The translations under genes and the position numbers were made by a program. Below, piece by piece: positions 2,967 to 46,572 of a DNA stretch of 64,000 nucleotides. Position 1 is the stretch's first letter, and every line of letters starts with the position of its first letter. Below the pieces are notes generated by a model. The model did not search any database, had not been told where the DNA came from, and was given only the letters and a program-made list of their open reading frames with translations. The stretch comes from Acidobacteriota bacterium (GTDB taxonomy: Bacteria > Acidobacteriota > UBA6911 > JACOSC01). The stretch lies in contig JACOSC010000025.1 in the NCBI GenBank assembly GCA_016179055.1, forward strand, positions 2,214 through 66,213, given 5' to 3'.

Positions 2967-3024
2967 TCGGATATTTTCGGGCGAAGGTGCCCTTGGCTCG
3001 GCCATAGTATTGGAGGATTTGCTC

Positions 3025-29802: not shown

Positions 29803-30296
29803 TATTTTCAGGGAAGCTAACCATCTTCGTCTAACGACAAGCAGACGTTTCCATCCGCGTGCCAGCGGCGGACCCGGCCGCAAATAATCAGCCTACTCTA
29901 GCGCGAGAACTAAAGTTTGTTCGGCTCTACTCCACGCGCTTAGGCTTATTTTGGGATGCCCCACAAACGCCCTGGGTGAACGCCGTCGGTGTCGCCGCGT
30001 AGTCGAGGTCTGTCGCTCACCAGTCCAAAAAGAGAGACGGACGGAAAGGAGCGTTAGTCGGATAAGAGGGGCGACGTGCGCCGCTCCCGTCCGCCAGACC
30101 CTCGGCGATGATCCGCCCCTGCCCCTGCCGCCCAATGATGTCCAAATTTTTTTGGTTGTCCATCCCCGACTGTGCTATAGTGCTCCCGTAGGAAAAATGT
30201 CATTTCCTAACTGTTTATTATAACCGCTAAGGTTTAGCTGTATTCGTTTGCCGCTTTCTTACACAGCATTTGAGTGTTTAGAATGAGGAGTCATTT

Positions 30297-31254: not shown

Positions 31255-33243
31255 ATGCCCGACCATAACTACTTCGCAAACCTGATATGGCAGATCGCCG
31301 ATCTGCTGCGCGGCCCGTACCGGCCGCCGCAATACGAGCGCGTCATGCTGCCGATGACCGTACTGCGCCGGTTCGACTGCGTGCTGGCGCCGACGAAGGC
31401 CGAGGTCCTGGCGGAGCATGAGAAGCGGAAAGGCGGGAGGCTGGAAGGCGACGCCCTCGACAAGAAGCTCAGCGAGAAGGCCGGCCAGCGTTTCCACAAC
31501 CACTCGCCGCTCGACTTTGAGAAGCTCAAGGGCGATCCCGACAACATCGAGAAGCATCTAGTCAGCTACATCAAGGGCTTCTCGGCGAACGTGCGCGGCA
31601 TCTTCGAATTCTTCGAGTTCGAGAACGAGATCGAGCGGATGCGCGAGGCGAACATCCTCTACCTCGTCGTTTCCAAGTTGTGCGACGTGGACCTGCACCC
31701 GAGCACGGTCCCCAACGAGCAGATGGGGCTGATCTTCGAGAACCTCATTCGCCGCTTCAACGAGCTGGCCAACGAGACCGCGGGCGACCACTTCACGCCG
31801 CGCGAAGTCATACGGCTCATGGTGAATGTCCTGTTCATCAATGACGACAAGCTGCTCGCCACGGCGGGCACCGTGCGCAAGCTCCTCGACCCGGCCTGCG
31901 GCACCGGCGGCATGCTGGCGGAGGCGCAGAACTACCTGCGCGAGCACCACGGGGAGGCGAGGCTCTTCGTCTACGGGCAGGACTACAACAAGCGCGCCTT
32001 CGCCACGGCCGCCTCCGACATGCTCATGAAGCAGGTGGACCATAACGGTGGTGGCGACAATGTGCGATTTGGCGACAGTTTCACCGACGACCAGTTCGCA
32101 GCCGAGACCTTCGACTACCTGCTCACCAACCCGCCGTTCGGCGTGGATTGGAAGAAGCAACTAAACGAGATCAAGAAAGAACACGACCAGCGCGGCTTCG
32201 ATGGCCGTTTCGGCGCTGGGCTCCCGCGGGTCAACGACGGCTCGCTGCTCTTCCTGCAGCACATGATCAGCAAGTTCGAGCCCGTGCGCCCGGCGGAGCA
32301 CAAGCACGGCTCGCGCCTTGCTATTGTTTTCAGCGGATCGCCGCTCTTCACCGGCGGCGCGGGCTCGGGCGAGAGCGACATCCGCAAGTGGATCATCGAG
32401 AACGACTGGCTCGAGGCGATCATCGCCCTGCCGGAGCAAATGTTCTACAACACCGGCATCGGCACCTACGTCTGGATTCTCACCAACCGCAAGGAGAAGC
32501 GCCGCAAGGGCGAGATCCAGCTCCTCGATGCCCGCGAGTTCTACGTCCCCATGCACCGGAGTCTCGGGGACAAGCGCCGGAAAATCGGCGAGAAGGAAGA
32601 CGGGCGCGACCAGATCGCCGAGATCGTGCAGATCTATGGCCGCTTCTCCGACGGCGATACTTCGAAGATTTTCGACAACGCCGATTTCGGTTACACCCGC
32701 GTCACCGTCGAGCGGCCGCTGCGCCTGCGCTACCAGATGACCACTGAGGACAAGACCCGCTTCCTCGATGGCTGCCCACATCTGCTCGATGATGTGCAGG
32801 CCATCGACAAAGCCCTGGGGCGCGAGCCGCAACGCGACTGGAACGCCGTGTGGACGCGCATCGAGGATCTGCTGCATGAGCGGAAGTCCCGCTGGAAGGC
32901 GCCCGAGCAGAAGCTCTTCCGCGGCATCTTCACACAAAGGGATCCCGATGCCAAGCCGGTCACGAAAGGCAGTCGCGACGAGGACTATGAGCCCGACACC
33001 GACCTGCGTGACTTCGAGAACGTGCCGCTCAAGGACGACATTGATGCCTACTTCGAGCGCGAGGTGCGGCCCCACATGCCTGATGCCTGGATGGACCGAT
33101 CCAAGGACAAGGTGGGCTACGAGATCAACTTCAACCGCCACTTTTACAGGCACACGCCCCCGCGCCCGCTGGAAGAGATCGATGCGGACCTGAAGCAGGC
33201 CGAGGAGGAGATTATGCGGTTACTGCGGGAGGTGACAACGTGA
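31255..33243 (+). CDS. hsdM: Type I R-M N6-adenine methyltransferase
   Basis: IWQIADLLRG, GDHFTPREV, DPACGTGGML, NPPF, KVGYEINFNRHFY. Confidence 0.95.
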   Translation: MPDHNYFANLIWQIADLLRGPYRPPQYERVMLPMTVLRRFDCVLAPTKAEVLAEHEKRKGGRLEGDALDKKLSEKAGQRFHNHSPLDFEKLKGDPDNIEKHLVSYIKGFSANVRGIFEFFEFENEIERMREANILYLVVSKLCDVDLHPSTVPNEQMGLIFENLIRRFNELANETAGDHFTPREVIRLMVNVLFINDDKLLATAGTVRKLLDPACGTGGMLAEAQNYLREHHGEARLFVYGQDYNKRAFATAASDMLMKQVDHNGGGDNVRFGDSFTDDQFAAETFDYLLTNPPFGVDWKKQLNEIKKEHDQRGFDGRFGAGLPRVNDGSLLFLQHMISKFEPVRPAEHKHGSRLAIVFSGSPLFTGGAGSGESDIRKWIIENDWLEAIIALPEQMFYNTGIGTYVWILTNRKEKRRKGEIQLLDAREFYVPMHRSLGDKRRKIGEKEDGRDQIAEIVQIYGRFSDGDTSKIFDNADFGYTRVTVERPLRLRYQMTTEDKTRFLDGCPHLLDDVQAIDKALGREPQRDWNAVWTRIEDLLHERKSRWKAPEQKLFRGIFTQRDPDAKPVTKGSRDEDYEPDTDLRDFENVPLKDDIDAYFEREVRPHMPDAWMDRSKDKVGYEINFNRHFYRHTPPRPLEEIDADLKQAEEEIMRLLREVTT

Positions 33244-34520
33244 GCGCATCAGCAGGCCGCGAGCAGCAGCGACTGAAGTATGTCGCCTCGATCAATACTG
33301 AGACCCTCACTGAGGAGACTAGCCCCGACTACGAGATGCGGTACGTGGATATCGGCAACGTTGATTCCTCAGGCGTTATCCATGAGATCGCCACATACCG
33401 CTTTGACGACGCGCCGAGCAGAGCCCGACGCGTGGTCCGCGATGGGGACGTCATTATTTCCACGGTTCGCACGTATTTGCAGGCGATTGCTCCTATCCAA
33501 GAGTCTCCCGAAAACCTAATCGTCTCTACGGGCTTCGCGGTGGTCCGCCCGCAGGCAAGCGTGTTCGATCCAGGTTTCTGCAAGTACGCACTGCGCGAGC
33601 CGGCCTTCCTCGCGGAAGTGGAAATGCGCTCAGCGGGTGTGAGCTACCCCGCTATCAACGCTTCCGATCTTGGTGACATCCCCATCCACCTGCCGACGCT
33701 GCAACAGCAGCGGGCTGTAGCGGGCTACCTCGACCGGGAGACGGCGCGGCTGGATGCGCTGGTGGCGGCGAAGGAGCGGCTGTTCGGGCTGCTGGCTGAG
33801 AAGCGCCGGGCGCTCATCACCCGCGCCGTCACCCGCGGCCTCGACGCCCGCGCCCCTCTCCGCGACTCCGGCATCCCCTGGCTCGGCGAGATTCCGGTGC
33901 ATTGGGAGACGAAGAGGCTCAAGCACTTTGCTACGATTTACTACGGACTAAGCCAACCACCGGAATACGTGCCGTGTGGCGTCCCGTTCTTACGCGCGAC
34001 GAACGTAAAGCGCGGAGAGCTGTTCAAGGATGGGCTCGTATACGTTGACGAAGCTGATTTGCCTGAATCAAGAGTCGTGCGACTTCGCTCTGGCGACATT
34101 ATCGTGGTGCGAAGCGGAGCGTATACAGGAGACTCCGCTATCGTCACCGAAGAATGGGGCGGAGCTGTAGCTGGTTACGACATGGTGGTTCGGATGGCCC
34201 GGGCTGCTGAGCCCGAGTACATATCGTTGGCTCTCCTGTGTCAGTATGTGCTCGAGGCGCAAATCGATCCATTGCGTCTCCGAGCTGCGCAACCCCATCT
34301 GAATGCGGAAGAGCTCGGCAACATTCAGTTCGCCATACCTCTCCTGTCGGAGCAGAGAGACATCGTGGCATACGTCGGTGCCGAAACTACCAAGCTCGAC
34401 GCGCTCCGATCTGCCACCGAGCGCACCATCGCTCTACTCAAGGAGCGTCGGGCCGCCCTCATCGCCGCGGCAGTAACGGGGCAAATTGATGTGAAGGAGG
34501 TGATGGCAAATGCCCGCTAG
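33240..34520 (+). CDS. hsdS: Type I R-M specificity subunit
   Basis: Two TRDs separated by PTLQQQRAVAGYLD..RRALITRAVT and DSGIPWLGEIP; ends LIAAAVTG. Confidence 0.93.
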   Translation: MSASAGREQQRLKYVASINTETLTEETSPDYEMRYVDIGNVDSSGVIHEIATYRFDDAPSRARRVVRDGDVIISTVRTYLQAIAPIQESPENLIVSTGFAVVRPQASVFDPGFCKYALREPAFLAEVEMRSAGVSYPAINASDLGDIPIHLPTLQQQRAVAGYLDRETARLDALVAAKERLFGLLAEKRRALITRAVTRGLDARAPLRDSGIPWLGEIPVHWETKRLKHFATIYYGLSQPPEYVPCGVPFLRATNVKRGELFKDGLVYVDEADLPESRVVRLRSGDIIVVRSGAYTGDSAIVTEEWGGAVAGYDMVVRMARAAEPEYISLALLCQYVLEAQIDPLRLRAAQPHLNAEELGNIQFAIPLLSEQRDIVAYVGAETTKLDALRSATERTIALLKERRAALIAAAVTGQIDVKEVMANAR

Positions 34521-35691
34521 GGATAAGAAGAAGCCCGTCACGGCAGCCGTGCAGCCACAACTCCTCCGCTGGGCGAGGGAGCGCGTGCCCCTAACGACTG
34601 CCGCTCTCGCTAAGAAGGTCGGGCTCAAGGAGGAGCGGGTCATCGAGTGGGAAGCGACGGGCAAACTGACACTGGCGCAACTGGAGAAGGTCGCCGGCAA
34701 GACGTACACGCCCGTGGGGTATCTCTTCCTCCCCATACCGCCCCGGGAAGATCTGCCCATCGCCGATTTTCGCCGCGTGGCTGGCCAGCCAGTCGGCCGG
34801 CCAAGCCCCGACCTACTCGACACGATCTACGTGTGCCAGCAACGGCAGAACTGGTACCGAGAGCACCTGGTCGCGGAAGGAGAGAGGCCTCTGCCATTCG
34901 TCGGCAGCGCCAGGCTCACGGAGCAGCCGGCGATCGTGGCGGGGCGCATCCGGGCGGTGATCGGCCTCGATGACGCGTGGAGCGGGTCGGTCCGGAATAC
35001 GAATGAAGCATTTCGCTCCCTGGTTGAGAAGGTGGAAGCAGCCTGCATTCTGGTGATACGGAACGGTGTGGTCGGCAATAACAACTATCGCAAACTCAGC
35101 GTTTCGGAGTTCCGCGGCTTCGCGCTGTCTGACGAGTACGCGCCCCTCGTCTTCATTAATGCTGGCGACTGGCCCGCCGCGAAGATTTTCACCCTGGCAC
35201 ACGAACTCGGTCATATTTGGCTTGGGCACTCCGGCGTCTCCGACGCGGATATGGAATCGGACCACCAGGAAGAACACTTCTGCAACGAGGTGGCGGCGGA
35301 GGTGCTCGCGCCCATGGCCGAGTTTCGGGACGCCTGGCGCAAAACCGCCGATCCCTTGGATGAGGCGCGGCGGCTGGCCGATCTGTTCAAGGTGAGCATG
35401 CTGGTGGCGCTCATTCGCGCTCGGGCCGCTGGCCTTATCTCGCAGAAGAAGTTTGACGCCCTGTACGAGGCCGAGCGTGAAGGCTTTCCGCCCACGGAGA
35501 GTAAGACGGGTGAGAAAGGCGGGGGCGATTTTTACAGGACGCAGGGCAGCCGCCTGAGCAAGCGGTTCGCTCGCGCGGTGATCGTGAGCGCTCTCGAAGG
35601 GCGCACCACGTTCACAGAGGCGTTCCACCTGCTGGGGCTAAGGGAAGGAACGTTCGATGAATACGCTCGGAAACTGGGGGTCGTTCACTGA
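34510..35691 (+). CDS. XRE-HTH + ImmA/IrrE Zn metallopeptidase (RmrA-like antitoxin)
   Basis: LLRWARER HTH; EFRGFAL, FTLAHELGH (HExxH), EEHFCNEVAAEVL. Confidence 0.88.
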   Translation: MPARDKKKPVTAAVQPQLLRWARERVPLTTAALAKKVGLKEERVIEWEATGKLTLAQLEKVAGKTYTPVGYLFLPIPPREDLPIADFRRVAGQPVGRPSPDLLDTIYVCQQRQNWYREHLVAEGERPLPFVGSARLTEQPAIVAGRIRAVIGLDDAWSGSVRNTNEAFRSLVEKVEAACILVIRNGVVGNNNYRKLSVSEFRGFALSDEYAPLVFINAGDWPAAKIFTLAHELGHIWLGHSGVSDADMESDHQEEHFCNEVAAEVLAPMAEFRDAWRKTADPLDEARRLADLFKVSMLVALIRARAAGLISQKKFDALYEAEREGFPPTESKTGEKGGGDFYRTQGSRLSKRFARAVIVSALEGRTTFTEAFHLLGLREGTFDEYARKLGVVH

Positions 35692-36188
35692 TGGCCTACC
35701 TGCTTGATGCTGACGTGTTCATATCGGCGAAGCGGCATCATTATCGCTTCATCGTCTGCCCGGGATTCTGGGAGTGGTTGCTCCATGCGAACGGACGCGG
35801 GAGGGTCTTCAGCATCGACAAGGTTCAGCGTGAGTTAAAAAATGGAACGGACGAACTTGCGGCTTGGGCTGAGGAGCAGTCAACGTCATTCTTCCTTGAG
35901 GGGGACGCCCAGGTTATCGAGGCGGCGGAGAGGGTGAGCGCGTGGGCGCACCAGCAGCATTACGAGCCGCAGGCCATCTCGGAGTTCTTCAGGTCCGCGG
36001 ATTACTGGCTTGTCGCGCACGCGATATCGAGGGGATGGAAAGTGATCACGCACGAAGTCTCGGCCCCCGAATCGAAGAAGAAGATCAAGCTGCCCGACGC
36101 CTGCGCCGCGGTCGGGGTAGCGACCACGAGTCCGTTTCAGATGTTGGAAGACGAGGGGGCGCGGTTTGTCCTGGGGGTGCGATTATGA
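35691..36188 (+). CDS. DUF4411 PIN-domain protein (RmrT-like toxin)
   Basis: YLLDADVFI, FWEWL, ADYWLVAHA, VITHE, KIKLPDAC. Confidence 0.85.
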   Translation: MAYLLDADVFISAKRHHYRFIVCPGFWEWLLHANGRGRVFSIDKVQRELKNGTDELAAWAEEQSTSFFLEGDAQVIEAAERVSAWAHQQHYEPQAISEFFRSADYWLVAHAISRGWKVITHEVSAPESKKKIKLPDACAAVGVATTSPFQMLEDEGARFVLGVRL

Positions 36189-39100
36189 CACAAACGAACG
36201 AAGCGGCCTTCGAGACCGTCATTGAAGCCCATTTCCTCGCCAACGGCTACGTGTGGGTGAGTCGGGACGGATTCGACCGCGAACGGGCGATCTTCCCCGA
36301 AGTCGTCCTCGATTTCATCCGTCAGACCCAGCCGAAGGAGTGGGCCAAGTTGGAGGCGCTGCATGGGGACAAGACCGGCGAACAGATTCTCGGCGACCTG
36401 TGTAAGTGGATGGATGCCAATGGCTCGATCGCGACGCTGCGCCACGGCTTCAAGTGCTACGGACGGACGCTGCACGCAGCCTACTTCAAGGCGGCGCACG
36501 AGCTGAACCCGGAGCTTGAGGCGCGTTACGCCGCGAACCGTCTAGGGATCACCCGGCAGCTTCACTTCTCGTCGCGCTCGGAGAAATCTCTCGATGTCAC
36601 GCTGAGCCTGAATGGCATCCCCGTCGCCACGCTGGAGCTGAAGAACCCGCTCACGGGGCAGACCGCCGAGGACGCGCGCCGGCAGTACAAGCAGGACCGC
36701 GACCCGCGCGAGCCGATCTTCGAGTTCAAGCGCCGCACGCTGGTGCACTTCTCCGTGGACACCGAAGCGGTGCTGATGACTACGCGCCTCGCAGGCACGG
36801 CCACTCACTTCCTGCCGTTCGACAAGGGCTGCGGGGGCGGCGCGGGCAACCCGCCGGACCCGGCGGGACGCACCTACCGCACGGCCTATCTCTGGGAGGA
36901 AGCGCTGCAGCGGGACAGCCTGCTCGATCTCCTGGCCAGATTCATTCATATTCAGATGGAAGAGAAGCGCGCGGAAGACGGACGAAAGGTTAAGACCGAA
37001 ACAATGATTTTCCCCCGTTATCACCAGCTCCAGGCCGTGCGTATGCTGGTGGAGGCGGCCCGCCGCGAGGGCGTGGGAAACAACTATCTCGTCGAGCACT
37101 CGGCCGGCAGCGGCAAGAGCAACACGATCGGCTGGCTGGCGCACAGGTTGGCGTCGCTGCACGACGCCGCGAATCAGCGCGTATTCGACAGCGTCATCGT
37201 GGTAACCGATCGGGTTGTGCTCGATCAGCAGTTGCAGGACACGATCTACCAGTTCGAACATAAACGCGGCGTGGTGCAGAAGATTGACGAGAGTTCTCGG
37301 CAACTGGCGGAAGCGCTCGAGAACGCGGTGCCGGTGGTCATCACCACGTTGCAGAAGTTCCCATTCGTCTCGCGCCAGTTGCTCAAGATGGCAGAGGAGC
37401 GCGGCGAGAGTGGTACCGGCACGCTGCCGACCCGCCGCTGCGCCGTGATCATCGACGAGGCGCACAGCTCGCAGGGCGGCGAGACCGCCACCGACCTCAA
37501 GGAGGTTCTGGGCGGCGAGGCGTTGCGGGAAGAGGCGAAGCTAAAGGCCTCCGATGAGGGTCAGGAGGACATGGAGGAACTCTTCCGCAGCATGGCCAAG
37601 CGCGGTCGGCAGGCGAACTTGAGCTTCTTCGCCTTCACGGCGACTCCCAAGCACAAGACCCTCGCCGTCTTCGGTCGCGACGGGCGGCCGGCCCACCGCT
37701 ACACGATGCGCCAGGCAATCGAGGAGGAATTCATCCTTGATGTGCTGAAGCACTACACGACATACGCCGTTTACATCAAACTTCTCAAGGCATGCTCTGA
37801 CGACCCAAACGTCGAGCGCAAGAAGGCGGCGAAGGCACTGGCGCGGTTCCTAAGGCTGCACCCGCACAACATCGCGCAGAAGACCGAGGTGATGGTCGAG
37901 CACTTCAACGCCGTCACTCGCCACAGGATTGGTGGCCGAGCCAAGGCGATGGTTGTAACGGGATCTCGACTCGAAGCGGTGCGCTACAAGCAGAGCTTCG
38001 ACCGGTACATTAAGGAGAAGGGCTATCCCATCAAGACTCTGGTCTCGTTCTCCGGTACAGTGCAGGACGACAAACTCTCCAATGTGACCTACACGGAAGA
38101 GGGAATGAACCTCGGGATTCGCGAGAAGGAGTTGCCGGAGAAGTTCGCGACGCAGGAATACCATGTTCTTCTGGTGGCGGAGAAGTACCAGACGGGCTTC
38201 GACCAACCGCTGTTGCACACGATGTATGTGGACAAGCGACTGGCGGGTATCCAAGCTGTACAGACCCTGTCGAGGCTGAACCGCACCCACCCGCTCAAGG
38301 AAGACACCTTCGTCCTCGACTTCGTGAACGACCGCGAGGAGATCCGCGAGGCGTTCAAGACGTACTACGAGGGCGCAGAAATGGGCGACGAAGTCGACCC
38401 GGCGCGCATGTATCAGCTAAAGGGCGAGCTGGACACCTCGGGCATCTACCTGGCCGAAGAGCTCGAGCGGTTCTGCACGGTCTACTTCAAGCCCAAGCAG
38501 CGGCAGAGCGCCGCGGATCATCAGGCGATGAATGCGGCGCTGGATCCGGCGGTCTCGCGATTTACGGTGCGCCAGCGCGACGACGAGGACGAAGCGGAGT
38601 TGTGGCGGGGGAAGGTGCAGGCGTTCCGCAACCTGTACGGATTCCTCAGCCAGGTGATCCCATATCAGGACTCGGACCTCGAGCGGCTGTACGTGTTCCT
38701 CCGTCATCTGGCCGCGAAGTTGCCCCGGCGACGAAGCGGCCCGGCCTACCAGTTCGACGACGAGGTGCGGCTCGAGTACTACCGCCTGCAGAAGATCAGC
38801 GAGGGCTCGATCTCGCTGCAAGATGGCGATGCCCGACGCCTGGACGGTCCCACGGACGTCGGCAGCGGCCTCGTACGGTTGCAGCCTATGCCGCTGTCGC
38901 AGTTGATCGACATCGTGAACGAACGGTTCGGGACGGACTTCAACCAGGCCGATCAACTCTTCTTCGATCAGATGGTCGAGGCCGCCATGGACGACGATGG
39001 ACTGCGGCAGGCGGCGGCGGTGAATCCGGGAGACAAGTTCGAGTTGCTGTTCAAGAATCTGCTCGAAAGTCTCTTTGTGGAGCGCATGGATCAGAATGAG

Positions 39101-39730
39101 GAGATCTTCGTGCGCTTTATGAACGACCTGCCGTTCCAGAAGGTTGTAACGGCTTGGATGGCGTCAGAGGCCTACCGGCGGCTGCGGGCTTGCTCCGCCG
39201 ATGCCGGCGCCGGCAGCGATCAACGGTCGGGAACGTCAAGGCTTCGCATCGTTCGGCCGCGTCCCGAGGAGTGCTACGTCACTTGCGTTCCGCTCATTCC
39301 GCTTGAGGCGGCGGCGGGCGCGTTCAGCGACCCGCAACTCGTCGAGAACAGTGACTGGGAGTGGGTTGCCATCAACCCGACCCGCAAGCTCCGTCCGGGG
39401 ATGTTCGTCGCCCGGGTGGTCGGTAAGTCAATGGAACCGACTATTCCGGACGGTTCCTATTGCCTGTTCGCCACGCCCGTTACCGGCACGCGGCAAGGGA
39501 AGATCGTGCTTGTCCAGCTCCACGATGCCGCCGACCCCGAAACGGGTGAACGCTACACCGTAAAGCGCTACGAGAGCGGGAAGGTCCCCATTGAGGGATC
39601 GTGGCGTCACGCCAAGATCATCCTGAAGCCGATCAACCCCGACTTCGCGCCGATCGAACTCAGTGGCGCAGAGGAGGGCCAGCTCCAGGTTATCGCCGAA
39701 TGGCTCGTGGTCCTCGGTCGCGGCCAATGA
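36185..39730 (+). CDS. hsdR: Type I R-M restriction subunit with C-terminal S24 (LexA-like) peptidase domain
   Basis: D..ELK..QY nuclease motif, HSAGSGKS, DEAH, TATP, TGFD, QTLSRLNR; tail EAAAG..GKSMEP..YTVKRY; ATGA overlap. Confidence 0.93.
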   Translation: MTQTNEAAFETVIEAHFLANGYVWVSRDGFDRERAIFPEVVLDFIRQTQPKEWAKLEALHGDKTGEQILGDLCKWMDANGSIATLRHGFKCYGRTLHAAYFKAAHELNPELEARYAANRLGITRQLHFSSRSEKSLDVTLSLNGIPVATLELKNPLTGQTAEDARRQYKQDRDPREPIFEFKRRTLVHFSVDTEAVLMTTRLAGTATHFLPFDKGCGGGAGNPPDPAGRTYRTAYLWEEALQRDSLLDLLARFIHIQMEEKRAEDGRKVKTETMIFPRYHQLQAVRMLVEAARREGVGNNYLVEHSAGSGKSNTIGWLAHRLASLHDAANQRVFDSVIVVTDRVVLDQQLQDTIYQFEHKRGVVQKIDESSRQLAEALENAVPVVITTLQKFPFVSRQLLKMAEERGESGTGTLPTRRCAVIIDEAHSSQGGETATDLKEVLGGEALREEAKLKASDEGQEDMEELFRSMAKRGRQANLSFFAFTATPKHKTLAVFGRDGRPAHRYTMRQAIEEEFILDVLKHYTTYAVYIKLLKACSDDPNVERKKAAKALARFLRLHPHNIAQKTEVMVEHFNAVTRHRIGGRAKAMVVTGSRLEAVRYKQSFDRYIKEKGYPIKTLVSFSGTVQDDKLSNVTYTEEGMNLGIREKELPEKFATQEYHVLLVAEKYQTGFDQPLLHTMYVDKRLAGIQAVQTLSRLNRTHPLKEDTFVLDFVNDREEIREAFKTYYEGAEMGDEVDPARMYQLKGELDTSGIYLAEELERFCTVYFKPKQRQSAADHQAMNAALDPAVSRFTVRQRDDEDEAELWRGKVQAFRNLYGFLSQVIPYQDSDLERLYVFLRHLAAKLPRRRSGPAYQFDDEVRLEYYRLQKISEGSISLQDGDARRLDGPTDVGSGLVRLQPMPLSQLIDIVNERFGTDFNQADQLFFDQMVEAAMDDDGLRQAAAVNPGDKFELLFKNLLESLFVERMDQNEEIFVRFMNDLPFQKVVTAWMASEAYRRLRACSADAGAGSDQRSGTSRLRIVRPRPEECYVTCVPLIPLEAAAGAFSDPQLVENSDWEWVAINPTRKLRPGMFVARVVGKSMEPTIPDGSYCLFATPVTGTRQGKIVLVQLHDAADPETGERYTVKRYESGKVPIEGSWRHAKIILKPINPDFAPIELSGAEEGQLQVIAEWLVVLGRGQ

Positions 39731-40207: not shown

Positions 40208-40903
40208 TTATTGTTGCCCTGGACGCAGACGTTGTATAAGCTCTTCCGCCATAGGAACTAGAAATGTCCTTAGCTCTTCCAGGCCGAGCGGCTTAATCAT
40301 GCGCGGCAATTTGCGCAATTTTTGTACTCTGTGTAAGTTGGTCGCAAAGACAAGAGTACCGTCTTCGCCGTCGAACACCGCGTCCTTTTCACGCGCCCGA
40401 CCGATCAGGTAGTCCAGTGTATAGCGCGACTCTTTAAGAATGAAAAAGAGGTCACAGTAGTCCTTCAGGTCTGGTGGTTCTCTGCCATAGATCGCGCAGA
40501 TTTTGTTTACGGCTATATCCTCGAAAGAGTCCATGACAATTCGTTCGTGTGTTTGGGGCTCATCCATCTGTGCGGCCACGTCTTTAATAAACTCAAGCTT
40601 GAGCTGATTTTCTATCTGACCCTCCGGGTAGACAAAAAATCTTCCAAAGTCGGCGTCCGTCTCGGGCTGTTCATCGATAGTCAGTCCTACAGAGGCCAAA
40701 ATCTCCTGGACTTTTCTGAAGTCTTTATCCAGCGGGTCCGGCTTCCGGGTAAAAAAGTCCAAGTCATCCGAATAGCGATGTTGCAGGTAGAACTCAGACA
40801 ACGCGGTGCCGCCCGAAAGGAAATATCCTTCATCGCCGAATCCACGATCAAACAGGGCCATCAGCACTTTGCTTTGCAGATCGGTAAGAACTTTAAACGG
40901 CAT
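40208..40903 (-). CDS. AbiEii/AbiGii-family nucleotidyltransferase
   Basis: FLSGGTAL..YLQHRYSDDLDFF; NKICAI..R..KDYCDL. Confidence 0.88.
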   Translation of the reverse strand: MPFKVLTDLQSKVLMALFDRGFGDEGYFLSGGTALSEFYLQHRYSDDLDFFTRKPDPLDKDFRKVQEILASVGLTIDEQPETDADFGRFFVYPEGQIENQLKLEFIKDVAAQMDEPQTHERIVMDSFEDIAVNKICAIYGREPPDLKDYCDLFFILKESRYTLDYLIGRAREKDAVFDGEDGTLVFATNLHRVQKLRKLPRMIKPLGLEELRTFLVPMAEELIQRLRPGQQ

Positions 40904-43900
40904 GTCGCCAGACCTCAAGCGCCGCTTCCAGCATCTTGCGCTTTTTTTCCGGAAGATCCACTTGCGGCAACGCTTCTTCAATATCTTCGACGGTCAGCCA
41001 TCGCTTTGCATCTTTCCATGCGGCATATTTCAAAATCCGACCAATAGCCCAAATCCGCTGGTCGGAATTCTTGTCCTGAATGTACCGGCGCAGATCGTTT
41101 ACGTCTTCATCATAGTCCCATACGATCTGACGGGAGACTTCTCCTTCTAGGCGATTCATCACTTCACGCAGCCAGTCACGCGCGCGCGGTGGCGTGGCGG
41201 GGTCCTGCAATACACGCTCAATCTCACGCTTGCGCCCTTCGTAAAACCGCGACATAGGCCCTTCAATGATCGTTTCCTCTTGCTCTATGCCTGCAGTCAG
41301 CCGGCGGCGCAATATTTCGTCATTGGGGTACATCTCAACCAGCTTGAACGCCAGGGGCCAGAATCCGGGTTTGGCGCCGGTCAAGCCGTTAGCGACGGCG
41401 CGTGCAGACTCTTCGCCCTTCCTGGCAAAATCGAGCAGCAGGTTTCCGTCACTTTCTTGGTCAAGCAGACCTTTCAGATCAAAGAAAAGGGAGGTATCCG
41501 TTTGAGCAACGTTCAGAACCAACTCAATAAGACGTCCTCTGTTATTACGGTAAAGGATTTCCCAGAATTTATGGGTGTCATAGGGGTCTAGAGGGTTCCA
41601 CTGCTTCTCCGAAATCTCGGACTGTTGGATAAGCTTTTCGAGAAACTTAAATCCGCGCTCCGTATCATCTTGCGCCAGACCGGCGGCCAATTGATCAAAG
41701 TGCCGACCGCTGGTTGATGACGCAACCGGTAGTTCGTGTTCCAGGCAACACCAGGCAAACTCGGCCAAGCTGCCTTTCAACGCATGACCACCTTGTACCC
41801 AAAAAGCTAACTGGCGAACGGCAACCGCGGCATATTCAAAATACTCGCCGGCAATTACCTTTAGAAGCTGCTCGAGCTGATCTGCCATATCGGCGCGAAA
41901 TTCAAGGGTGTCTGCAACGTATTTCGGAGTAACCTGTTTATTCTGAATCAGAGTCTTAACACGTGTTACAGTCGTCGGACCTACGCCAAGCCAAGCGGTG
42001 GCTTGCACAATAGCCGCTCCAAAGGGAGCACCCGAATCGGTTAATTCGTCCAGACGCGCCTCTGCCGCTTCTCGGTCCCGCTGCGCCCAACCTTGCCAGT
42101 AGGCGGCAAAGGCGCGCACGCTCTCGGGCTCGGGTTGTGCGCCAAATTCCTCTATGCGGTTTTGATAGCTCAACTCTTTATCCGCGCTTCCAAGAAAGAA
42201 GAAAAAAGTGCTGGATTTCTGCGCGGATGGAGATACTAGCCATGCCACTAAATCAGCCGTTAGAAGGCTGGGTTCCTTAACCACATCACAGGCTAGCGCT
42301 TTGAGCTCGTGCGCGAAACGCGGATGGTCATCAGCCAAGATACCGCCACTCATATCATTTCCTGCCCAGCGTTTCAATCGTATGGCGAAGCCTGCTTGCC
42401 CCAGACTGTCTTCTAACTGTTGCAAGCCGGTAATACATTGGCGAAACCTATTCTGCAGATCGGATGGTAGCGTTACTGCTCCTTGTTCAAGTTGTTTAGA
42501 AAGATGCTCTCGCATTAAGCGAAGCGCCCTAAGAAGTGACGCTATATCAAGGCCGGCCTTGTCGGAACGAGCCCATTCCACGAGTTTTTTAAACAGTTCC
42601 AATGCCTCCTGATCCTGGCCAGCGCGAATACCTAATTGTGCAGTTAACCACGGCAATTTATCAAGTGCCGCTTTCGCAACCTCATCACTCTGGTTCGCGA
42701 GGCACATCAGAATATCCACCAGATTACAAGCATAGTCGTAAAAGTCATTGTACGTAAAGTCCGGCTTCCAGTCTAAGGGCTCTGAACCGGTACTCTGGCG
42801 AGCGCGGAACCACTTGTCAACCCAAGCGGCGGCCACCGCTTTAACAACAACTAGCTTTCCTTCCTTTGAAGCCTTGTCCGAGATGAATTCGTTAAGCAAC
42901 TCGATCCGCTCACCAAGAGGAAGCGGCATCTGGGGATGGGACGGATGAAAACATTCGATCAGCACTCCGGTTGCATTATTAGCATAGGTTTCATTCTCAG
43001 CCTCTGCCAACAGCCATAACAGGCGGACAGATCTCCGACTCGTACTTGCGCGAAAGATCAACTGCTCAAGCGTCCTTACGAGTTCACGGCGTTCGTTATC
43101 TGCGATCCCAAGTCGAGTTTCCCTGTTGCTGTTTAGTAAACCGGATTCGAGCAAGCGTACTGTGTAATCCGGTACAGTACCTGCAACCAGCGTCAATAGT
43201 TTTGCATTTTTAAGGGCCGCCTGAAAATTCTCTAGTGGGCCGCTGTGTGTAGAAAATTCCTTCCAAAACCGTGCTACCTCATCTCCAGTTACGCCGCTAA
43301 GCCTTTTTAACAAACGAATACGTCCTGGCTCGTCCAGCCTTCCAAATAAGGCAAGCATCACTTGTTGCCGTCCTTGCAGAAGTTTTGAAACCAGAGAATT
43401 GGCGAGCATGGGAATGGTTATCGCGACAAAGGATCCTCCGCGTTTCGCCAATCCCGCCTTTTCGAGTTCTGGCAATTTTAAAAGCACATTATGCCGATCC
43501 CATCCTTCCCCAAACAATTCGCAAATGACGTTAAGTTCATTTTCAAAGGCTCCGGAAATCCCCACATGCGTCAGAAGCGAGAACAACTGAGCACCGTGGA
43601 GCGCATCGGGACCGAGTTCTTTTTTGATCCGATCCTCGAATTCCTGCCCTACTTGCTCGGCGAAGTCCTCTGACGTGTCTCGCAATTTGTTTCCAACACT
43701 AGCAGCCACCAGGAGCACTCCCGGAACTCCACCGGCATTACGGATAATCCAATCCTCAATGGAAAAATCCAAAGGCCGGCCGGCAGCTCTCAGAAGCTTT
43801 CGGGCATTTTCTTCCGAGAGGGGCTGAAGATGTACAGACTGTACCCGTTCATCGCGCCCGTAAGACGGCGCGGGGGCGTTGGCTGAGGTGGGCAACGTTA

Positions 43901-44825
43901 TGATTAGTTTTAAGGTCGGTAACGTCAGCGCCTCACTCACCAATAAATCAATCGATTCCGAATCCGGGTCCTCAACGATGCATAGGATCTCGCCCTTATC
44001 CGAAACGAGCTGTCGGTAATCGTTCAGAGCCATGGAGCGCGGGTCAAGCGCCTGGACGACATAGTGGGGTCGGTGTCGAGTGGCTTCTAGAGCAAGACGG
44101 CTCTTTCCAACATCGTGCGGCCCAGTCAGAACTACCACGCGTACTCGCGGATCGTCAACCAACAATTTAAGACGATTAAGCTCGCCCTCCCGACCTGTGA
44201 GTTCGACATCTGCCCCATTATGCTTTTGACTTTGGTGTGCTTGGTAAGCCTCTTGCCAGGTCTTGAAAGATTCGCGAGTAAAGTAGGCGGCGCGTAGATG
44301 TGGATTGTCATTTAGAAGCACGGCTAATTCCGCTGCGCCCACGATTTCCACATGAACCATGGATGAATTCGCGTATCCATCCAAAATGGCCTTTTTTATC
44401 GGAGGTTTGCCATCATGATTTAGATCTGCATTGACGAAGAGAACGTATCGGTCCGGGTGCCGTCCGTTTCTTTCAGTCAGATCCTTCACAGCCCCTTTGA
44501 GCGACGATTTTAAATTAGAAATGACTGCTCGACGTCCATCGGCGATCAGGTCACGCTTCTTGTATTGAAACACATTCCAACCGGGACCAAGAATCGGCGT
44601 TGGCAGCGCATGACCATCATCGGGAAGCACGATGTCCCACTCGGCGTCAATGCCTTTATCCTTCGCATTGACACGCGCAGTAAACGAAGGTAGCTTTGGG
44701 CAAGCCCGTCCCGATGCGGCCCAGGCCAGGGCATCGCACAGCGACGCAAATCGATCCGGGGGCCACTCGCTGGTCCACTGTTCCAGGTGGCGTCCAGTAA
44801 TCGCTTGTCCAATCAATAAAGCCAT
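40893..44825 (-). CDS. Large nuclease-STAND NTPase protein with C-terminal antitoxin-like domain
   Basis: DKGIDA..FQYK (Mrr/PD-(D/E)xK-like); TGREGEL, GPHDVGKS (Walker A), CIVED (Walker B), GGVPG; long helical region; WDYD..IWAIGRILKY..ALEVW tail. Confidence 0.75.
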   Translation of the reverse strand: MALLIGQAITGRHLEQWTSEWPPDRFASLCDALAWAASGRACPKLPSFTARVNAKDKGIDAEWDIVLPDDGHALPTPILGPGWNVFQYKKRDLIADGRRAVISNLKSSLKGAVKDLTERNGRHPDRYVLFVNADLNHDGKPPIKKAILDGYANSSMVHVEIVGAAELAVLLNDNPHLRAAYFTRESFKTWQEAYQAHQSQKHNGADVELTGREGELNRLKLLVDDPRVRVVVLTGPHDVGKSRLALEATRHRPHYVVQALDPRSMALNDYRQLVSDKGEILCIVEDPDSESIDLLVSEALTLPTLKLIITLPTSANAPAPSYGRDERVQSVHLQPLSEENARKLLRAAGRPLDFSIEDWIIRNAGGVPGVLLVAASVGNKLRDTSEDFAEQVGQEFEDRIKKELGPDALHGAQLFSLLTHVGISGAFENELNVICELFGEGWDRHNVLLKLPELEKAGLAKRGGSFVAITIPMLANSLVSKLLQGRQQVMLALFGRLDEPGRIRLLKRLSGVTGDEVARFWKEFSTHSGPLENFQAALKNAKLLTLVAGTVPDYTVRLLESGLLNSNRETRLGIADNERRELVRTLEQLIFRASTSRRSVRLLWLLAEAENETYANNATGVLIECFHPSHPQMPLPLGERIELLNEFISDKASKEGKLVVVKAVAAAWVDKWFRARQSTGSEPLDWKPDFTYNDFYDYACNLVDILMCLANQSDEVAKAALDKLPWLTAQLGIRAGQDQEALELFKKLVEWARSDKAGLDIASLLRALRLMREHLSKQLEQGAVTLPSDLQNRFRQCITGLQQLEDSLGQAGFAIRLKRWAGNDMSGGILADDHPRFAHELKALACDVVKEPSLLTADLVAWLVSPSAQKSSTFFFFLGSADKELSYQNRIEEFGAQPEPESVRAFAAYWQGWAQRDREAAEARLDELTDSGAPFGAAIVQATAWLGVGPTTVTRVKTLIQNKQVTPKYVADTLEFRADMADQLEQLLKVIAGEYFEYAAVAVRQLAFWVQGGHALKGSLAEFAWCCLEHELPVASSTSGRHFDQLAAGLAQDDTERGFKFLEKLIQQSEISEKQWNPLDPYDTHKFWEILYRNNRGRLIELVLNVAQTDTSLFFDLKGLLDQESDGNLLLDFARKGEESARAVANGLTGAKPGFWPLAFKLVEMYPNDEILRRRLTAGIEQEETIIEGPMSRFYEGRKREIERVLQDPATPPRARDWLREVMNRLEGEVSRQIVWDYDEDVNDLRRYIQDKNSDQRIWAIGRILKYAAWKDAKRWLTVEDIEEALPQVDLPEKKRKMLEAALEVWRHAV

Positions 44826-45355: not shown

Positions 45356-46225
45356 ATGCTGATACTATCTCGATCGCTTCTACGCAGGGTCGCTTGGGCC
45401 GCCCTTAGTTTTATTATTCTGGGCTATGCGGCGCCGGCCGCAGAAGAATCTGCCGAAAAGTCGCTCGAGTGGAGCGGTTCCGTGGGTGTGTTCTCCAATT
45501 ATATCGCGCGCGGCTTATCGCAATCCTGGGGAAAACCGGTGTTACAGGCCGAGGTAGACGCGGCCCACAAAAGCGGATTTATCTTTGGCGCCTTTGCCTC
45601 ATCCCTTAGCCGGAACCTCTATCCGGGCGGCCATACTGAAATCGACGCCTGGGTGGGGTATGAGTACCCGTTGTCGGAGGAAATGGCCGTCAGTGTCGAG
45701 GCCTTCTATTATGCTTTCCCGAAAGCCAATATCAGCAAGGCCACTTGCGGGGTAGCCATCCCCTGTCCGAGCCGGCCGCATAGCTTTAACACGGCTCAGG
45801 TACGGGTCGGGACCACGTGGCACGGTGTCACTCTCCGCCTGGATTATTCTCTTACCGATTATTTCGCTGATTCTCGGCCAACCGGCTTTGCCGGGAGCAC
45901 GCGTGGGACTATGTACTGGGAGCTTAATTTCAAACAAGCGCTTCCACGGACGCAAAGTTGGACGCTTATGTCGCATCTTGGTGCTACGCGATTTCCAGTA
46001 AAATACGCGATAGCCGGTACGGGGATTAGTCAGAATCCTAATTACTGGGATTGGCATGCGGGAGTGGCGAAGGAATTTAAGGGTAAGCTGATGGGATGGC
46101 GCGCAAGTCTTCTCGGCGCCGGGGCCCTCGGTCGTTCGTTCGATAGTACTCCCTCGCTGATTAGCGTACGTTCAAAGGATCTTGGAAAACCCGTATTGGT
46201 CCTGGGTATCGAAAGGGCGTTTTGA
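45356..46225 (+). CDS. TorF-family putative outer-membrane porin
   Basis: Signal peptide; SNYIARGLSQSWGKPVLQ, EIDAWVGY, YWDW; terminal Phe. Confidence 0.75.
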   Translation: MLILSRSLLRRVAWAALSFIILGYAAPAAEESAEKSLEWSGSVGVFSNYIARGLSQSWGKPVLQAEVDAAHKSGFIFGAFASSLSRNLYPGGHTEIDAWVGYEYPLSEEMAVSVEAFYYAFPKANISKATCGVAIPCPSRPHSFNTAQVRVGTTWHGVTLRLDYSLTDYFADSRPTGFAGSTRGTMYWELNFKQALPRTQSWTLMSHLGATRFPVKYAIAGTGISQNPNYWDWHAGVAKEFKGKLMGWRASLLGAGALGRSFDSTPSLISVRSKDLGKPVLVLGIERAF

Positions 46226-46342
46226 AAAAGTCTGGCGGTTCCAAAGTAAGGTTGATATCACCTGAATTTTGCACGACAAGGAGGTTTCTCTAACAAATGA
46301 TCCATTTTTGTCCGGCTCTGCTTGTTCGCGCGGATCCGTGCA

Positions 46343-46400
46343 AAAAAATTTTTGCACGGACGATCATCACCACGGAGGGTAACTTAGCGATGACTGTGCG
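46343..46400. repeat. Second copy of the 58-bp dispersed repeat
   Basis: Reverse complement of 19593-19650. Confidence 0.85.
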
Positions 46401-46446
46401 CAGGAGCGGCCTGTTTATCGCAAGAATGCATGTGTGAGTTCGAACA

Positions 46447-46572
46447 AGCCCCGTAGGGGCGGCCTGTGTAAGGTTGATTTCGTCGACGAACGCGTCCGGA
46501 CAGGTCGCTCCTACGGAGCTTTAGGACCTACCATAGGAATCGCTACTATAAGCAGGCCGCCCCTACGGGGCT
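46447..46572. repeat. REP-like palindrome
   Basis: AGCCCCGTAGGGGCGGCCTG ... CAGGCCGCCCCTACGGGGCT, with a third unit at ~46501-46520. Confidence 0.75.

Follow-up and report, generated by a model that had tools for sequence, protein, structure and literature searches.

The window, the 64,000-nt stretch of DNA that was analysed, carries a two-gene cassette on its reverse strand in which a gene for a large STAND-like protein is followed by a gene for an AbiEii/DUF1814-family nucleotidyltransferase (NTase) (Table 1). The 1310-aa protein consists of four parts in the order nuclease fold, STAND-like P-loop module, helical body and 85-aa tail. The GC content of the cassette is ~51% while that of its flanks is ~61%. 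A type I restriction-modification (R-M) operon adjoins the locus, as had been predicted. This neighbour is convergent with the cassette, with 477 nt between the AbiEii stop codon and the operon, in which hsdM (31255-33243) and hsdS (33240-34520) are followed by genes that end with hsdR at 39730.

Table 1. Features of the cassette and the adjoining operon (positions in the window)
Feature	Positions	Strand	Basis
STAND-like protein gene (P0001), 1310 aa, stop codon included	40893..44825	-	ORF and translation
Mrr-type PD-(D/E)xK nuclease fold, residues 1 to ~195	44241..44825	-	AF2 model and VIA-align
P-loop NTPase module, residues ~196-520	43266..44240	-	motif positions and conservation
Walker A GPHDVGKS, residues 235-242	44100-44123	-	sequence motif
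Walker B CIVED, residues 282-286	43968-43982	-	sequence motif
LQPLSEENARKLL in P-loop module	43791-43829	-	sequence motif, conserved
GGVPG, residues 365-369	43719-43733	-	sequence motif, conserved
Long helical body, residues ~521-1225, presumed sensor	41151..43265	-	partial PADLOC match
DUF6922-like tail, 85 aa, residues 1226-1310	40896..41150	-	homology to small upstream AbiEii partners
STAND stop/AbiEii start overlap, 11 nt, ATGCCGTTTAA	40893..40903	-	reading of both frames
Gene for AbiEii/DUF1814-family nucleotidyltransferase, 231 aa, stop codon included	40208..40903	-	Pfam PF08843, PADLOC AbiEii models
Type I R-M operon: hsdM, hsdS, M78 peptidase, DUF4411, hsdR	31255..39730	+	convergent with cassette

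Domains of the two proteins

The N-terminal region of the large protein contains the motifs DKGIDA (residues 56-61) and QYK (residues 87-89), in which D56, D60, Q87 and K89 are candidate catalytic residues; these and G58 are each conserved in 90% or more of 60 sequences. The AF2 model of the domain (pLDDT 86.2) has the element order alpha-beta-beta-beta-alpha-beta. When the model was compared with 48,161 chains using VIA-align, the best PDB match of residues 6-187 was to residues 1-178 of Avs4 (Z 8.5, 142 aligned, rmsd 3.6), and further matches were to the N-terminus of LlaBIII (Z 7.3), AspBHI (7.1) and MspJI (7.0). The nuclease-like N-terminus of the original prediction is thus confirmed by the top structural match and the conserved motif, and a PD-(D/E)xK fold with conserved D..D..QxK residues occupies the position of the N-terminal effector of STAND/Avs-like receptors.

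The P-loop module contains, in order, Walker A, Walker B, LxPLxxxxAxxLL and GGxPG motifs, all of which are conserved. By the patterns GxxxxGK[ST] for Walker A and hhhhD[DE] for Walker B, the protein is a P-loop NTPase in which the G and GK of Walker A and the ED of Walker B are at least 90% conserved (60 sequences). In STAND proteins the NTPase core is followed by a helical domain with a GxP motif and by a winged-helix domain, and LQPLSEENARKLL and GGVPG, in the expected order, are candidate hallmarks of this region. Pfam AAA_16 matches the 1310-aa protein at E 7e-5, which is under the family cut-off, and by manual count ~43 homologues among the 120 matches listed have precomputed AAA_16 and/or ATPase_2 assignments. 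An hmmscan of the 1310-aa protein gave no match to nSTAND3, NB-ARC or NACHT at E<=1. In ESM Atlas features, residues 195-560 are nearest to nSTAND3/NB-ARC clusters (score 0.97, 216 of 256 features common), and these neighbours together with the conserved Walker motifs favour the P-loop/STAND assignment made beforehand. For the helical body, where Avs-like receptors have a C-terminal repeat sensor that binds a phage protein, the PADLOC model PD-Lambda-4_A (Avs8) aligns weakly but collinearly, with residues 412-715 matching positions 422-731 of the 1283-position profile (E 1.7e-8, 30.6 bits). HEAT_2 was found in one homologue of the protein.

The AbiEii ORF was listed from a TTG at 40981, and the ATG at 40903 is the likely start, giving a protein of 231 aa. 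This protein matches Pfam AbiEii at E 6.6e-16 with 59.4 bits, above the cut-off of 22.5. The NTase motifs G[GS]..., SxDxD, K and DxxD are all present, and the residues G31, G32, T33, S45, D47, D49, K102, D125, D129, N133, K134, R141, K147, D148 and D151 are invariant in 11 cassettes. Since the catalytic motifs are all conserved, the enzymatic activity of the NTase is under selection; by analogy with characterised relatives, the enzyme would be a toxin. The overlap with the sensor gene is 11 nt because ATGCCGTTTAA is common to both frames, and the AbiEii ATG is preceded, 9 nt upstream, by a GAGG. The same 11-nt geometry is present in 32 of 32 other cassettes, in which the start codon is ATG (23), GTG (5) or TTG (4). 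An 11-bp overlap between the stop of the large ORF and an intact AbiEii-like NTase had been read from the sequence, and both the overlap and the family are as stated.

The tail, its relatives and its linkage to AbiEii

The tail motifs lie at residues 1236-1249 (WDYDEDVNDLRRYI, window positions 41079-41120), 1257-1272 (RIWAIGRILKYAAWKD) and 1299-1306 (LEAALEVW); like the nuclease and P-loop motifs, they are where the original prediction placed them in the ORF. The tail is modelled as five short helices with pLDDT of 82-89. A profile of 12 tails, searched against 1.84 billion representatives, gave 159 matches at E<=1e-3, of which 141 were sorted into 74 small proteins (<=160 aa, without a STAND part), 63 members of the STAND family and 4 others. 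Stand-alone proteins of 83-115 aa were matched across the whole tail profile with library-wide E-values of 4.8e-12 to 1e-4 (for example P0174, 88 aa, E 4.8e-12; P0175, 91 aa, E 1.1e-11), and they align with the tail end to end at 21-34% identity. In 18 of 27 more distant AbiEii loci the tail profile matches a small ORF abutting the AbiEii start, and none of the non-adjacent ORFs in these 27 loci was matched. Several stand-alone pairs of small protein and AbiEii overlap by 8-20 nt. The tail thus belongs to a family of AbiEii partners, as proposed.

The prediction had also called these proteins DUF6922-like, a label that is fair but loose. The tail alone has no match in Pfam even at E<=10, and of 48 members of the tail/small-protein family 14 match DUF6922 (PF21956) at E<=0.1 (best 1.4e-4), all below its gathering threshold of 27 bits. 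By hhalign, the family aligns with bona fide DUF6922 over 66 columns at a probability of 93.5% (E 2.3e-7), and the tails alone at 65% (E 6e-5). Judged by profile comparison, the tail and the small proteins are distant relatives of DUF6922. DUF6922 genes that score above the cut-off have an AbiEii-like ORF directly downstream in 15 of 17 places, which fits the earlier statement that small DUF6922-like proteins are stand-alone genes upstream of this AbiEii subtype. A Foldseek search with the tail fold gave no solved relative (best E 0.86), and a VIA search with the tail model aligned only the helical hairpin before the tail, not the tail domain proper. A search of PDB sequences with the small-protein profile gave no genuine relative and reached no MenA or AbiEi chain. 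By analogy, the tail and its stand-alone relatives are presumed antitoxins; the literature search found no publication on DUF6922 or on stand-alone pairs of DUF6922-like proteins and AbiEii, and the term antitoxin is therefore drawn here from gene order and analogy.

The fusion is not peculiar to this contig. The 1310-aa protein has 131 homologues at E<=1e-3, more than 100 of which are full length with 32-60% identity; most of the 120 matches listed are 1290-1350 aa long with ~100% coverage. The tail is at the extreme C-terminus in 88 of the 108 family members of at least 1150 aa, so that an assembly artefact does not account for it. AbiEii lies directly downstream in all 32 canonical-tail loci, besides the window, in which the sequence continues downstream for 690 nt or more (in one of them, L087, AbiEii matches in its first half only); homologues with both the fusion and the toxin gene, which had been proposed as a check, thus exist. 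Clustering at 90% AbiEii identity divides these loci and the window into 30 groups, and the loci come from metagenome-assembled genomes labelled Nitrospirota, Deltaproteobacteria, Planctomycetota and Elusimicrobia. The arrangement recurs in 32 further loci and is therefore not due to chance. Members with the canonical tail essentially make up a single clade, however, so that the 32/32 co-occurrence represents few independent events; a FastTree tree, its root being assumed, gives at least three changes. A six-frame search found no AbiEii-like frame in 13 tail-less, 6 divergent-tail and 3 remnant loci. In the sister clade, whose DUF6922-like tail is divergent but still recognisable (17-43 bits with the HMM of the small family), AbiEii is absent nearby in 6/6 loci; the domain can therefore be kept in the absence of the toxin and may serve a purpose independent of it. 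The existence of tail-less relatives makes the NTase arm an accessory. Relatives of the window's R-M genes occur at only 3 of 93 loci, the neighbour genes in sampled loci are for the most part housekeeping genes, and the family does not have a consistent defence-island setting. Copies were not found in the phage, plasmid and viral-contig collections searched.

The pairing of tail and NTase was also assessed by co-folding, a check that had been proposed with the prediction. The median ipSAE was 0.56 (runs 0.49, 0.62 and 0.56) while the best of three controls was 0.00, the partner pLDDT was at least 75, and the runs agreed in at least 92% of contacts. In the calibration, 58 of 80 solved complexes attained the mark, as did 2 of 110 mismatched pairs, and scores of 0.60 or below came from only 7 of the 80 solved complexes and from both mismatches; a score at this level is thus wrong more often than right, except where a pairing was already likely. 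The model weakly supports a contact between tail and NTase.

Relation to known systems

The large protein resembles Avs4 (PDB 8dgf) and Avs8/PD-lambda-4 in its size of ~1300 aa and in the order of nuclease, P-loop STAND module and helical sensor. Sequence similarity to Avs proteins is marginal, however, and no PADLOC or Pfam model matches the 1310-aa protein at a family-level score. The cassette also differs in having an antitoxin-like C-terminal domain and an obligatory second gene. In the PADLOC check proposed earlier, the AbiEii models match the NTase (best E 7.6e-13). Membership of PD-lambda-4/Avs8 was considered and rejected, the PD-Lambda-4_A match being limited to the stretch given above instead of full length and the AbiEii protein having no PD-Lambda-4 match. 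Avs8 senses a capsid protein, according to the available text of the report (10.64898/2026.01.04.697583). The main text of a 2026 survey of STAND defence families, as available, does not mention AbiEii, nucleotidyltransferase, DUF1814, NTase or toxin.

The cassette shares with AbiE and MenAT a PF08843 NTase, here with all motifs, and a partner encoded upstream, with overlapping stop and start codons. Their known antitoxins bind the toxin and induce its inactivating auto-phosphorylation, as the available text of two reports on AbiEii and MenT toxins describes (10.64898/2026.01.19.700257; PMC11375011). The partner here differs from these in being a DUF6922-like domain covalently joined to a 1225-aa sensor, and no relationship with a solved chain was detected for it, MenA among them. 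AbiE in the strict sense, whose AbiEi antitoxin has a winged HTH and a C-terminal domain, was rejected as a classification, the Pfam and NCBIfam matches of the large protein and the tail including no AbiEi family. The stand-alone pairs of DUF6922-like proteins and AbiEii have the same placement of the partner relative to AbiEii but are free two-gene modules without a sensor.

The same concept is found in the ParA-centred 'apoptosis' systems, in which, as far as the available text goes, an NTPase that has a sensor, TPR or otherwise, is genomically tied to a toxin-antitoxin pair, Pol-beta NTase toxins included, and the NTPase switch is proposed to reorganise the toxin-antitoxin contact upon sensing (10.64898/2026.10.19.760177). 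By the same text, the NTPase there is a SIMIBI ParA while here it is a STAND protein, the antitoxin is unfused to the sensor in a set of three separate genes, and the toxins and antitoxins are apparently of other families. A covalent link between an antitoxin domain and another module, with phage sensing and toxin control in one polypeptide, is shared with CapRel(SJ46). In CapRel(SJ46)-type systems toxin and antitoxin form one chain and the antitoxin itself is the sensor, whereas here a separate STAND sensor with its own nuclease carries the antitoxin-like domain and the toxin is a second protein.

Proposed mechanism and alternative explanations

The reading that we favour, with a probability of roughly 0.6, is that an Avs-like sensor captured an AbiEii pair whose antitoxin became fused at its C-terminus, and that the tail restrains the NTase until sensing frees it as a second arm. 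A nuclease-STAND gene would have captured a whole DUF6922-like/AbiEii pair downstream, after which the antitoxin would have been fused onto the C-terminus of the sensor and the AbiEii gene left translationally coupled to the first gene by the 11-nt overlap. In the resting state the tail would be bound to an inactive NTase. By analogy with MenA1/MenT1 and AbiEi/AbiEii, silencing may involve sequestration, induced auto-phosphorylation of the conserved Ser45 (S-x-D-x-D), or both; the correspondence of Ser45 to the MenT1 phospho-site T39 is taken from the published T-x-D pattern rather than from an alignment, and the PDB profile search did not reach MenT. Binding of a phage protein to the helical body may then lead to NTP-dependent oligomerisation and activation of the nuclease, and the same activation may alter the grip of the tail on the NTase. 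The freed NTase would block translation, by analogy through addition of nucleotides to tRNA 3' ends, and so act as a second abortive-infection arm. We infer a defence role for the cassette, neutralisation of the NTase by the tail, and a dual action of the ligand, which would set off the nuclease and free the NTase. The full version, in which a phage protein and NTP-driven oligomerisation of one STAND sensor turn on the nuclease and free AbiEii from its tethered antitoxin for a two-armed response against DNA and translation, is put forward only tentatively.

The strict pairing of tail and AbiEii could also come from an ordinary toxin-antitoxin module that retains a costly 3.9-kb sensor gene, with the nuclease alone providing defence and no phage-triggered release. 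The antitoxin would be encoded by the final 85 codons of the sensor gene, and loss of the cassette or a mutation that truncates the sensor would remove it while toxin already made persists, so that such cells would be counter-selected. Antitoxin-then-toxin order with overlapping genes is typical of such modules, the stand-alone homologues are laid out alike, and the tail-less relatives show that a nuclease-STAND protein can stand alone. AbiEii without a tail-coding ORF directly upstream was seen in 0 of 32 loci; in one locus (L098) the sensor ORF is split, yet its C-terminal 217-aa tail ORF and AbiEii are both intact, and three remnant loci (L013, L146 and L147) keep the tail ORF with the toxin gone. 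Split sensor genes also seem commoner without the module (~6 of 21 distinct non-canonical versus ~2 of 31 canonical loci in our own tally), a lead that comes from related, non-independent sequences in metagenome assemblies in which frameshifts may be errors. The 11-nt overlap weakens this explanation, however, because it implies coupling, and a premature stop in the sensor would lower toxin synthesis too. Nor does retention of the sensor give a reason for a fused antitoxin instead of a third gene, and we consider this explanation unlikely.

The covalent tether, by its architecture, may also tie toxin control to the integrity of the sensor, in which case the NTase would be freed not by normal sensing but through attack on that protein, its degradation or its sequestration by a phage inhibitor, protease or decoy, and the cassette would punish anti-Avs strategies. 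Back-up effectors are discussed for other NTPase-centred systems in the available text of the ParA report (10.64898/2026.10.19.760177), but the tail has no sequence sign of proteolytic lability and no anti-Avs factor is on record for this STAND family, which leaves such a guard improbable. It is likewise improbable that the NTase, instead of being a toxin, serves the sensor complex in a regulatory or accessory capacity, with the tail as a docking site that recruits it to modify the sensor, phage molecules or some nucleotide signal. Clades without a tail or with a divergent one do separate the tail domain from toxin neutralisation, the conserved catalytic motifs fit an active subunit, and the co-fold hints at direct tail-NTase contact. 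However, the characterised relatives AbiEii, MenT1 and MenT3 are growth-arresting toxins, with MenT acting on tRNA, according to the available text on them, and a sensor that could be regulated is absent from the stand-alone DUF6922-like/AbiEii pairs.

A published description of a fused sensor-antitoxin and AbiEii cassette was not found in the literature search. The cassette points to a new means of connecting a toxin with an infection sensor; should the full two-armed version hold, a STAND receptor would for the first time be seen to gate a toxin-antitoxin pair, and the DUF6922-like proteins would gain their first function. Partnership with AbiEii is the first plausible role for DUF6922 and its relatives, which are widespread small uncharacterised proteins, and Avs-like sensors would be shown to be able to carry a second, trans-acting effector. 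How phage trigger toxin-antitoxin modules is a long-standing open question, which an antitoxin-like domain hard-wired to a dedicated pattern-recognition receptor makes directly testable. Within one family, members with a canonical tail and the toxin, with a divergent tail and no toxin, and without a tail form a natural series that serves as a tool for dissecting the tail.

Linkage between the sensor tail and AbiEii

The large nuclease-STAND protein of the window (the sensor, P0001) ends in an 85-residue tail (residues 1226-1310), and its gene overlaps that of an AbiEii/DUF1814 nucleotidyltransferase (NTase); the two genes are referred to here as the cassette. The original prediction held that the tail is an AbiEii antitoxin tethered to the sensor. 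Loci with sensor relatives came from a scan of genome contigs (13), a search of the window's phylum (2) and a metagenome scan that started from tail-less members (80), and homologues that keep both the fusion and the downstream AbiEii gene were found among them. Where at least 690 nt of downstream sequence was available, an AbiEii-like ORF lies directly downstream at all 32 loci with a canonical tail (>95 bits), the match at one of them (L087) being limited to the N-terminal half of AbiEii. No such ORF was found in six frames at 13 tail-less loci, 6 loci with a divergent tail (20-42 bits) or 3 loci with decayed remnants, nor was a small DUF6922-like frame found at the tail-less and divergent-tail loci. 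In 32/32 canonical loci the NTase start codon (23 ATG, 5 GTG and 4 TTG) is placed so that the two genes overlap by exactly 11 nt, sensor stop included; together with the window, these loci form 30 clusters at 90% NTase identity. The loci from the genome-contig scan carry the MAG labels Nitrospirota, Deltaproteobacteria, Planctomycetota and Elusimicrobia. Because the tail is present in 88/108 long sensor homologues and the same junction recurs at 32 other loci, a misassembly or one-off fusion is ruled out.

Features of the window and of loci with sensor relatives
Feature	Location	Strand	Remarks
Sensor gene	window 40893-44825	-	single open frame, 1310 codons
AbiEii/DUF1814 NTase gene	window 40208-40903	-	231 codons; PF08843 59.4 bits (cut-off 22.5); many PADLOC AbiEii models
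Gene overlap	at ATGCCGTTTAA	-	NTase start 11 nt ahead of end of sensor stop
Type I R-M operon	ends at window 39730		convergent to cassette
hsdR ORF	window 35942-39730	+	C-terminal Peptidase_S24 (LexA-like) match, residues 1149-1252 of listed ORF, E 3e-8
M78/IrrE-type peptidase and DUF4411 genes	window 34510-36188	+	between hsdS and hsdR, within R-M operon
Further low-GC patches	window 30000-31000 and 46000-47000		47-48% vs ~61%
ORF	window 30297-31154		no Pfam family
AAA_15/AAA_21 (OLD/ABC-type) ATPase gene	L080 2198-3931		directly upstream of a cassette
Type I R-M genes	L070 4103-5368; L103 8010-11222; L126 and L130 265-2981		adjoin sensor relatives
Decayed sensor gene	L013 5959-7297		L146 on same contig; sibling L147
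Sensor gene in two ORFs	L098 242-4861		ORFs 242-3529 and 3526-4179

Tail-less proteins end in ...EADEEINLF, exactly where the tail begins. Downstream of tail-less and divergent-tail relatives, a search for a third gene or other partner found no ORFs in common except between L103 and L106. A FastTree phylogeny, which left out the last 130 sensor residues and was rooted on five distant members, places 82/83 canonical-tail rows in one clade, and the sister clade mixes divergent and tail-less rows. The tail-type label needs at least three changes on this tree; therefore the co-occurrence of tail and AbiEii is strict, yet few independent events stand behind it. P0112 and P0115, both basal, bear tails; that of P0112 is canonical, and that of P0115 is labeled divergent in the tree but scores 84 bits in the exhaustive profile search described below. 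This hints at an early gain followed by decay. Taken together, the findings fit a model in which a nuclease-STAND gene captured an entire DUF6922-like/AbiEii module and the partner domain became fused to the sensor C terminus.

Members of the sister clade (L070, L073, L079, L103, L106 and L143; proteins P0096-P0098 and P0101) carry a DUF6922-like tail of divergent sequence, and their loci lack AbiEii; in the four named proteins a basic C-terminal extension comes after the tail. The divergent tail may be an antitoxin domain that was orphaned or put to another use. At the decayed locus L013, the middle of the sensor gene and AbiEii are lost; what remains is an ORF of 293 aa from the N terminus and one of 174 aa from the C terminus, the latter with a canonical tail still in place. 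At L098, the ORF that codes for the tail and AbiEii are intact, and the split of the sensor gene could be a true frameshift or an assembly error.

The tail and small AbiEii partners

The 85-residue tail has no Pfam or NCBIfam match. A word-indexed search with it returned 9 matches on contigs of 589-2123 nt (49-81% identity), which are read as pieces of the large sensor family and not as stand-alone genes. An exhaustive HMMER search of 1.84 billion representatives with a profile of 12 tails gave 159 matches at E<=1e-3, and the 141 newly stored among them comprise 74 proteins of <=160 aa without a STAND part, 63 members of the STAND family and 4 oddities. The small proteins cover profile positions ~9-83, which is the entire domain (best E 4.8e-12), and align with the tails end to end at 21-34% identity around the consensus YFxWDYD...RxWAIxRIL..A.W.DIW.YLT....LP.L.L...R..W..AL..W. 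Stand-alone homologues at library-wide significance exclude, as a full account, the possibility that the tail does no more than cap the end of the helical sensor.

The NTase was searched in 401 genomes of the window's phylum, 28 of which had a match; L015 and L016 hold the same cassette as the window, and the NTases at the remaining 27 places are 27-38% identical to it. In 18/27 places, an ORF of 73-195 aa that abuts or overlaps the NTase start (gap -47 to +4 nt) gives a tail-HMM match at E<=0.01, while no non-adjacent ORF at these places did better than E 0.33 (E-values that refer to a small ORF set).

The tail had been called a DUF6922-like AbiEii partner. PF21956 (DUF6922), the sole recurrent family, appears below cut-off in 14/48 members of the tail/small-protein family. 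A comparison by hhalign of tails plus small proteins with ten bona fide DUF6922 proteins gave a probability of 93.5% (E 2.3e-7, 66 columns), and tails alone gave 65%. An AbiEii-like ORF comes directly after bona fide DUF6922 genes (above cut-off, 301 genomes) in 15/17 places. The label is therefore right in substance, with the tail being a remote DUF6922 relative and a non-member by the Pfam threshold. Identification of the tail as AbiEi or MenA was rejected, as no AbiEi match was obtained from Pfam or NCBIfam. A profile search of PDB sequences with the tail family returned nothing beyond a designed repeat protein and one weak match without relation to the tail, and Foldseek of the tail model against the PDB returned just helical noise, 14-3-3 included (best E 0.86). 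A wide VIA-align search with the tail model aligned only model residues 1-58, a hairpin ahead of the tail domain.

The DUF6922-like domain also occurs, rarely, in other arrangements. P0134 (182 aa) has two matched DUF6922-like stretches, and P0255 (180 aa) and P0190 (143 aa) combine a DUF6922-like stretch with an AbiEii one, which could reflect a gene fusion, a frameshift or a fragmentary sequence.

Sensor, nucleotidyltransferase and proposed mechanism

At E<=1e-3 the sensor family has 131 homologues. Of the 120 listed, most have lengths of 1290-1350 aa, with 32-60% identity and ~100% coverage. The sensor has no Pfam family above cut-off, and its full-length profile has no match among PDB sequences at E<0.04. 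Every motif quoted in the first reading of the protein was located where it had been placed. The model of residues 1-200 (60-row alignment) has a pLDDT of 86.2 and an alpha-beta-beta-beta-alpha-beta order, and its best structural matches among 48,161 PDB representatives (VIA-align) are all PD-(D/E)xK nuclease domains: Avs4 (residues 1-178, 142 aligned; Z 8.5), the N terminus of LlaBIII (Z 7.3) and the nuclease domains of AspBHI (Z 7.1), MspJI (Z 7.0), Card1 (Z 7.0) and FokI (Z 6.4). Z values of 7-8 are frequent according to the tool's own note; here, one fold dominates the match list. The top match is the domain in the equivalent position of a known antiviral STAND (Avs). Residues D56, G58, D60, Q87 and K89 are >=90% conserved, and D56/D60/Q87/K89 presumably represent the nuclease motif as a D...D...QxK variant.

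The P-loop module contains, in order, GPHDVGKS, CIVED, LQPLSEENARKLL and GGVPG, all conserved. It matches AAA_16 under cut-off (E 7e-5), and by our own count AAA_16 and/or ATPase_2 is precomputed on ~43/120 listed homologues. Residues 412-715 are collinear with positions 422-731 of the 1283-position PADLOC PD-Lambda-4_A profile (E 1.7e-8); PD-lambda-4 is Avs8, which senses a capsid protein according to the main text of a STAND survey (10.64898/2026.01.04.697583). The ESM-feature neighbors of the module are nSTAND3/NB-ARC clusters (score 0.97), some with Mrr_cat. The profile support for a STAND module is weak, though concordant.

In the NTase, G31, G32, T33, S45, D47, D49, K102, D125, D129, N133, K134, R141, K147, D148 and D151 are invariant in 11 cassettes. 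The closest solved chains to the AbiEii profile are 4o8s and 4ok0 ('Putative'; E ~3e-11), and MenT was not reached in this PDB search. AbiEii/MenT toxins are neutralized when antitoxin binding induces auto-phosphorylation at a conserved Ser/Thr beside the catalytic Asp, which in MenT1 is T39 with D41, as described in two reports (10.64898/2026.01.19.700257; PMC11375011). The invariant S45-x-D47 has the same pattern, and we infer that Ser45 is equivalent to the MenT1 phospho-site.

Co-folding of the NTase and tail alignments gave a median ipSAE of 0.56 (0.49, 0.62 and 0.56) against 0.00 for the best of three controls, with a partner pLDDT of >=75 and >=92% of contacts shared between runs; the verdict was weak support, short of proof. 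By calibration, a pass at <=0.60 is wrong more often than right unless the pairing is likely a priori, as it is here because of homology and linkage, to which the predicted score adds little.

The tail would keep the NTase inactive, and a STAND switch would govern both the sensor's own nuclease and the NTase. That the tail restrains the NTase and the cassette is an anti-phage system is, judged from sequence, the favored reading (probability about 0.6); the specific step in which sensing gates NTase release is more tentative and somewhat doubtful. Evidence against the favored reading includes the sister clade, which has a divergent tail but no toxin, and the lack of a consistent defense neighborhood (relatives of the window's R-M genes at 3/93 loci). 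It also includes carriage: tblastn against 50,697 phage and 72,556 plasmid records gave no match, and viral contigs scanned with P0001 held no relative. The main rival, an addiction or integrity lock in which the NTase guards the long sensor gene, is rather unlikely; the decayed copies L098 and L013 point toward it, and split sensor genes are rarer among canonical loci, both being leads and not evidence of weight. A guard against anti-defense factors and a non-toxic NTase with an accessory role are lesser possibilities.

Relation to known systems and genomic surroundings

As an anti-phage system with a restrained NTase, the cassette would resemble, in how it works, an Avs protein combined with an AbiE/MenAT pair. 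The sensor belongs by profile to none of the defined Avs types, and the cassette lies outside AbiE in the strict sense because AbiEi is absent. In ParA-centered systems, which pair an NTPase with a captured toxin-antitoxin unit (10.64898/2026.10.19.760177), each part has its own gene, and the NTPase belongs to a class other than the STAND of the cassette. A literature search found no paper on DUF6922 and none joining DUF1814 and NLR; among the papers listed for the pair, one mentions both AbiEii and a STAND NTPase, with AbiEii in another context. Kaur et al. (2020) do not mention 'AbiE', and the main text of the 2026 STAND survey (10.64898/2026.01.04.697583) names no AbiEii, NTase or toxin, although its supplements may list the clade. 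The cassette is of high interest because it makes the triggering of a toxin-antitoxin system by a dedicated receptor testable.

The sensor-NTase pair has a GC content of ~51% in a region of ~61%, and a promoter and terminator scan gave no signal exceeding shuffles. Ten sampled neighbors are mostly housekeeping genes, with one AAA_15/AAA_21 ATPase (at L080). Some sensor relatives have type I R-M genes beside them: by eye, the nearest ORFs downstream in L070 and L103 resemble hsdS and hsdR, and the hsdM of L126 and L130 is 73% identical to that of the window. Within the window, the joining of Peptidase_S24 to the type I restriction subunit hsdR is an unusual fusion.
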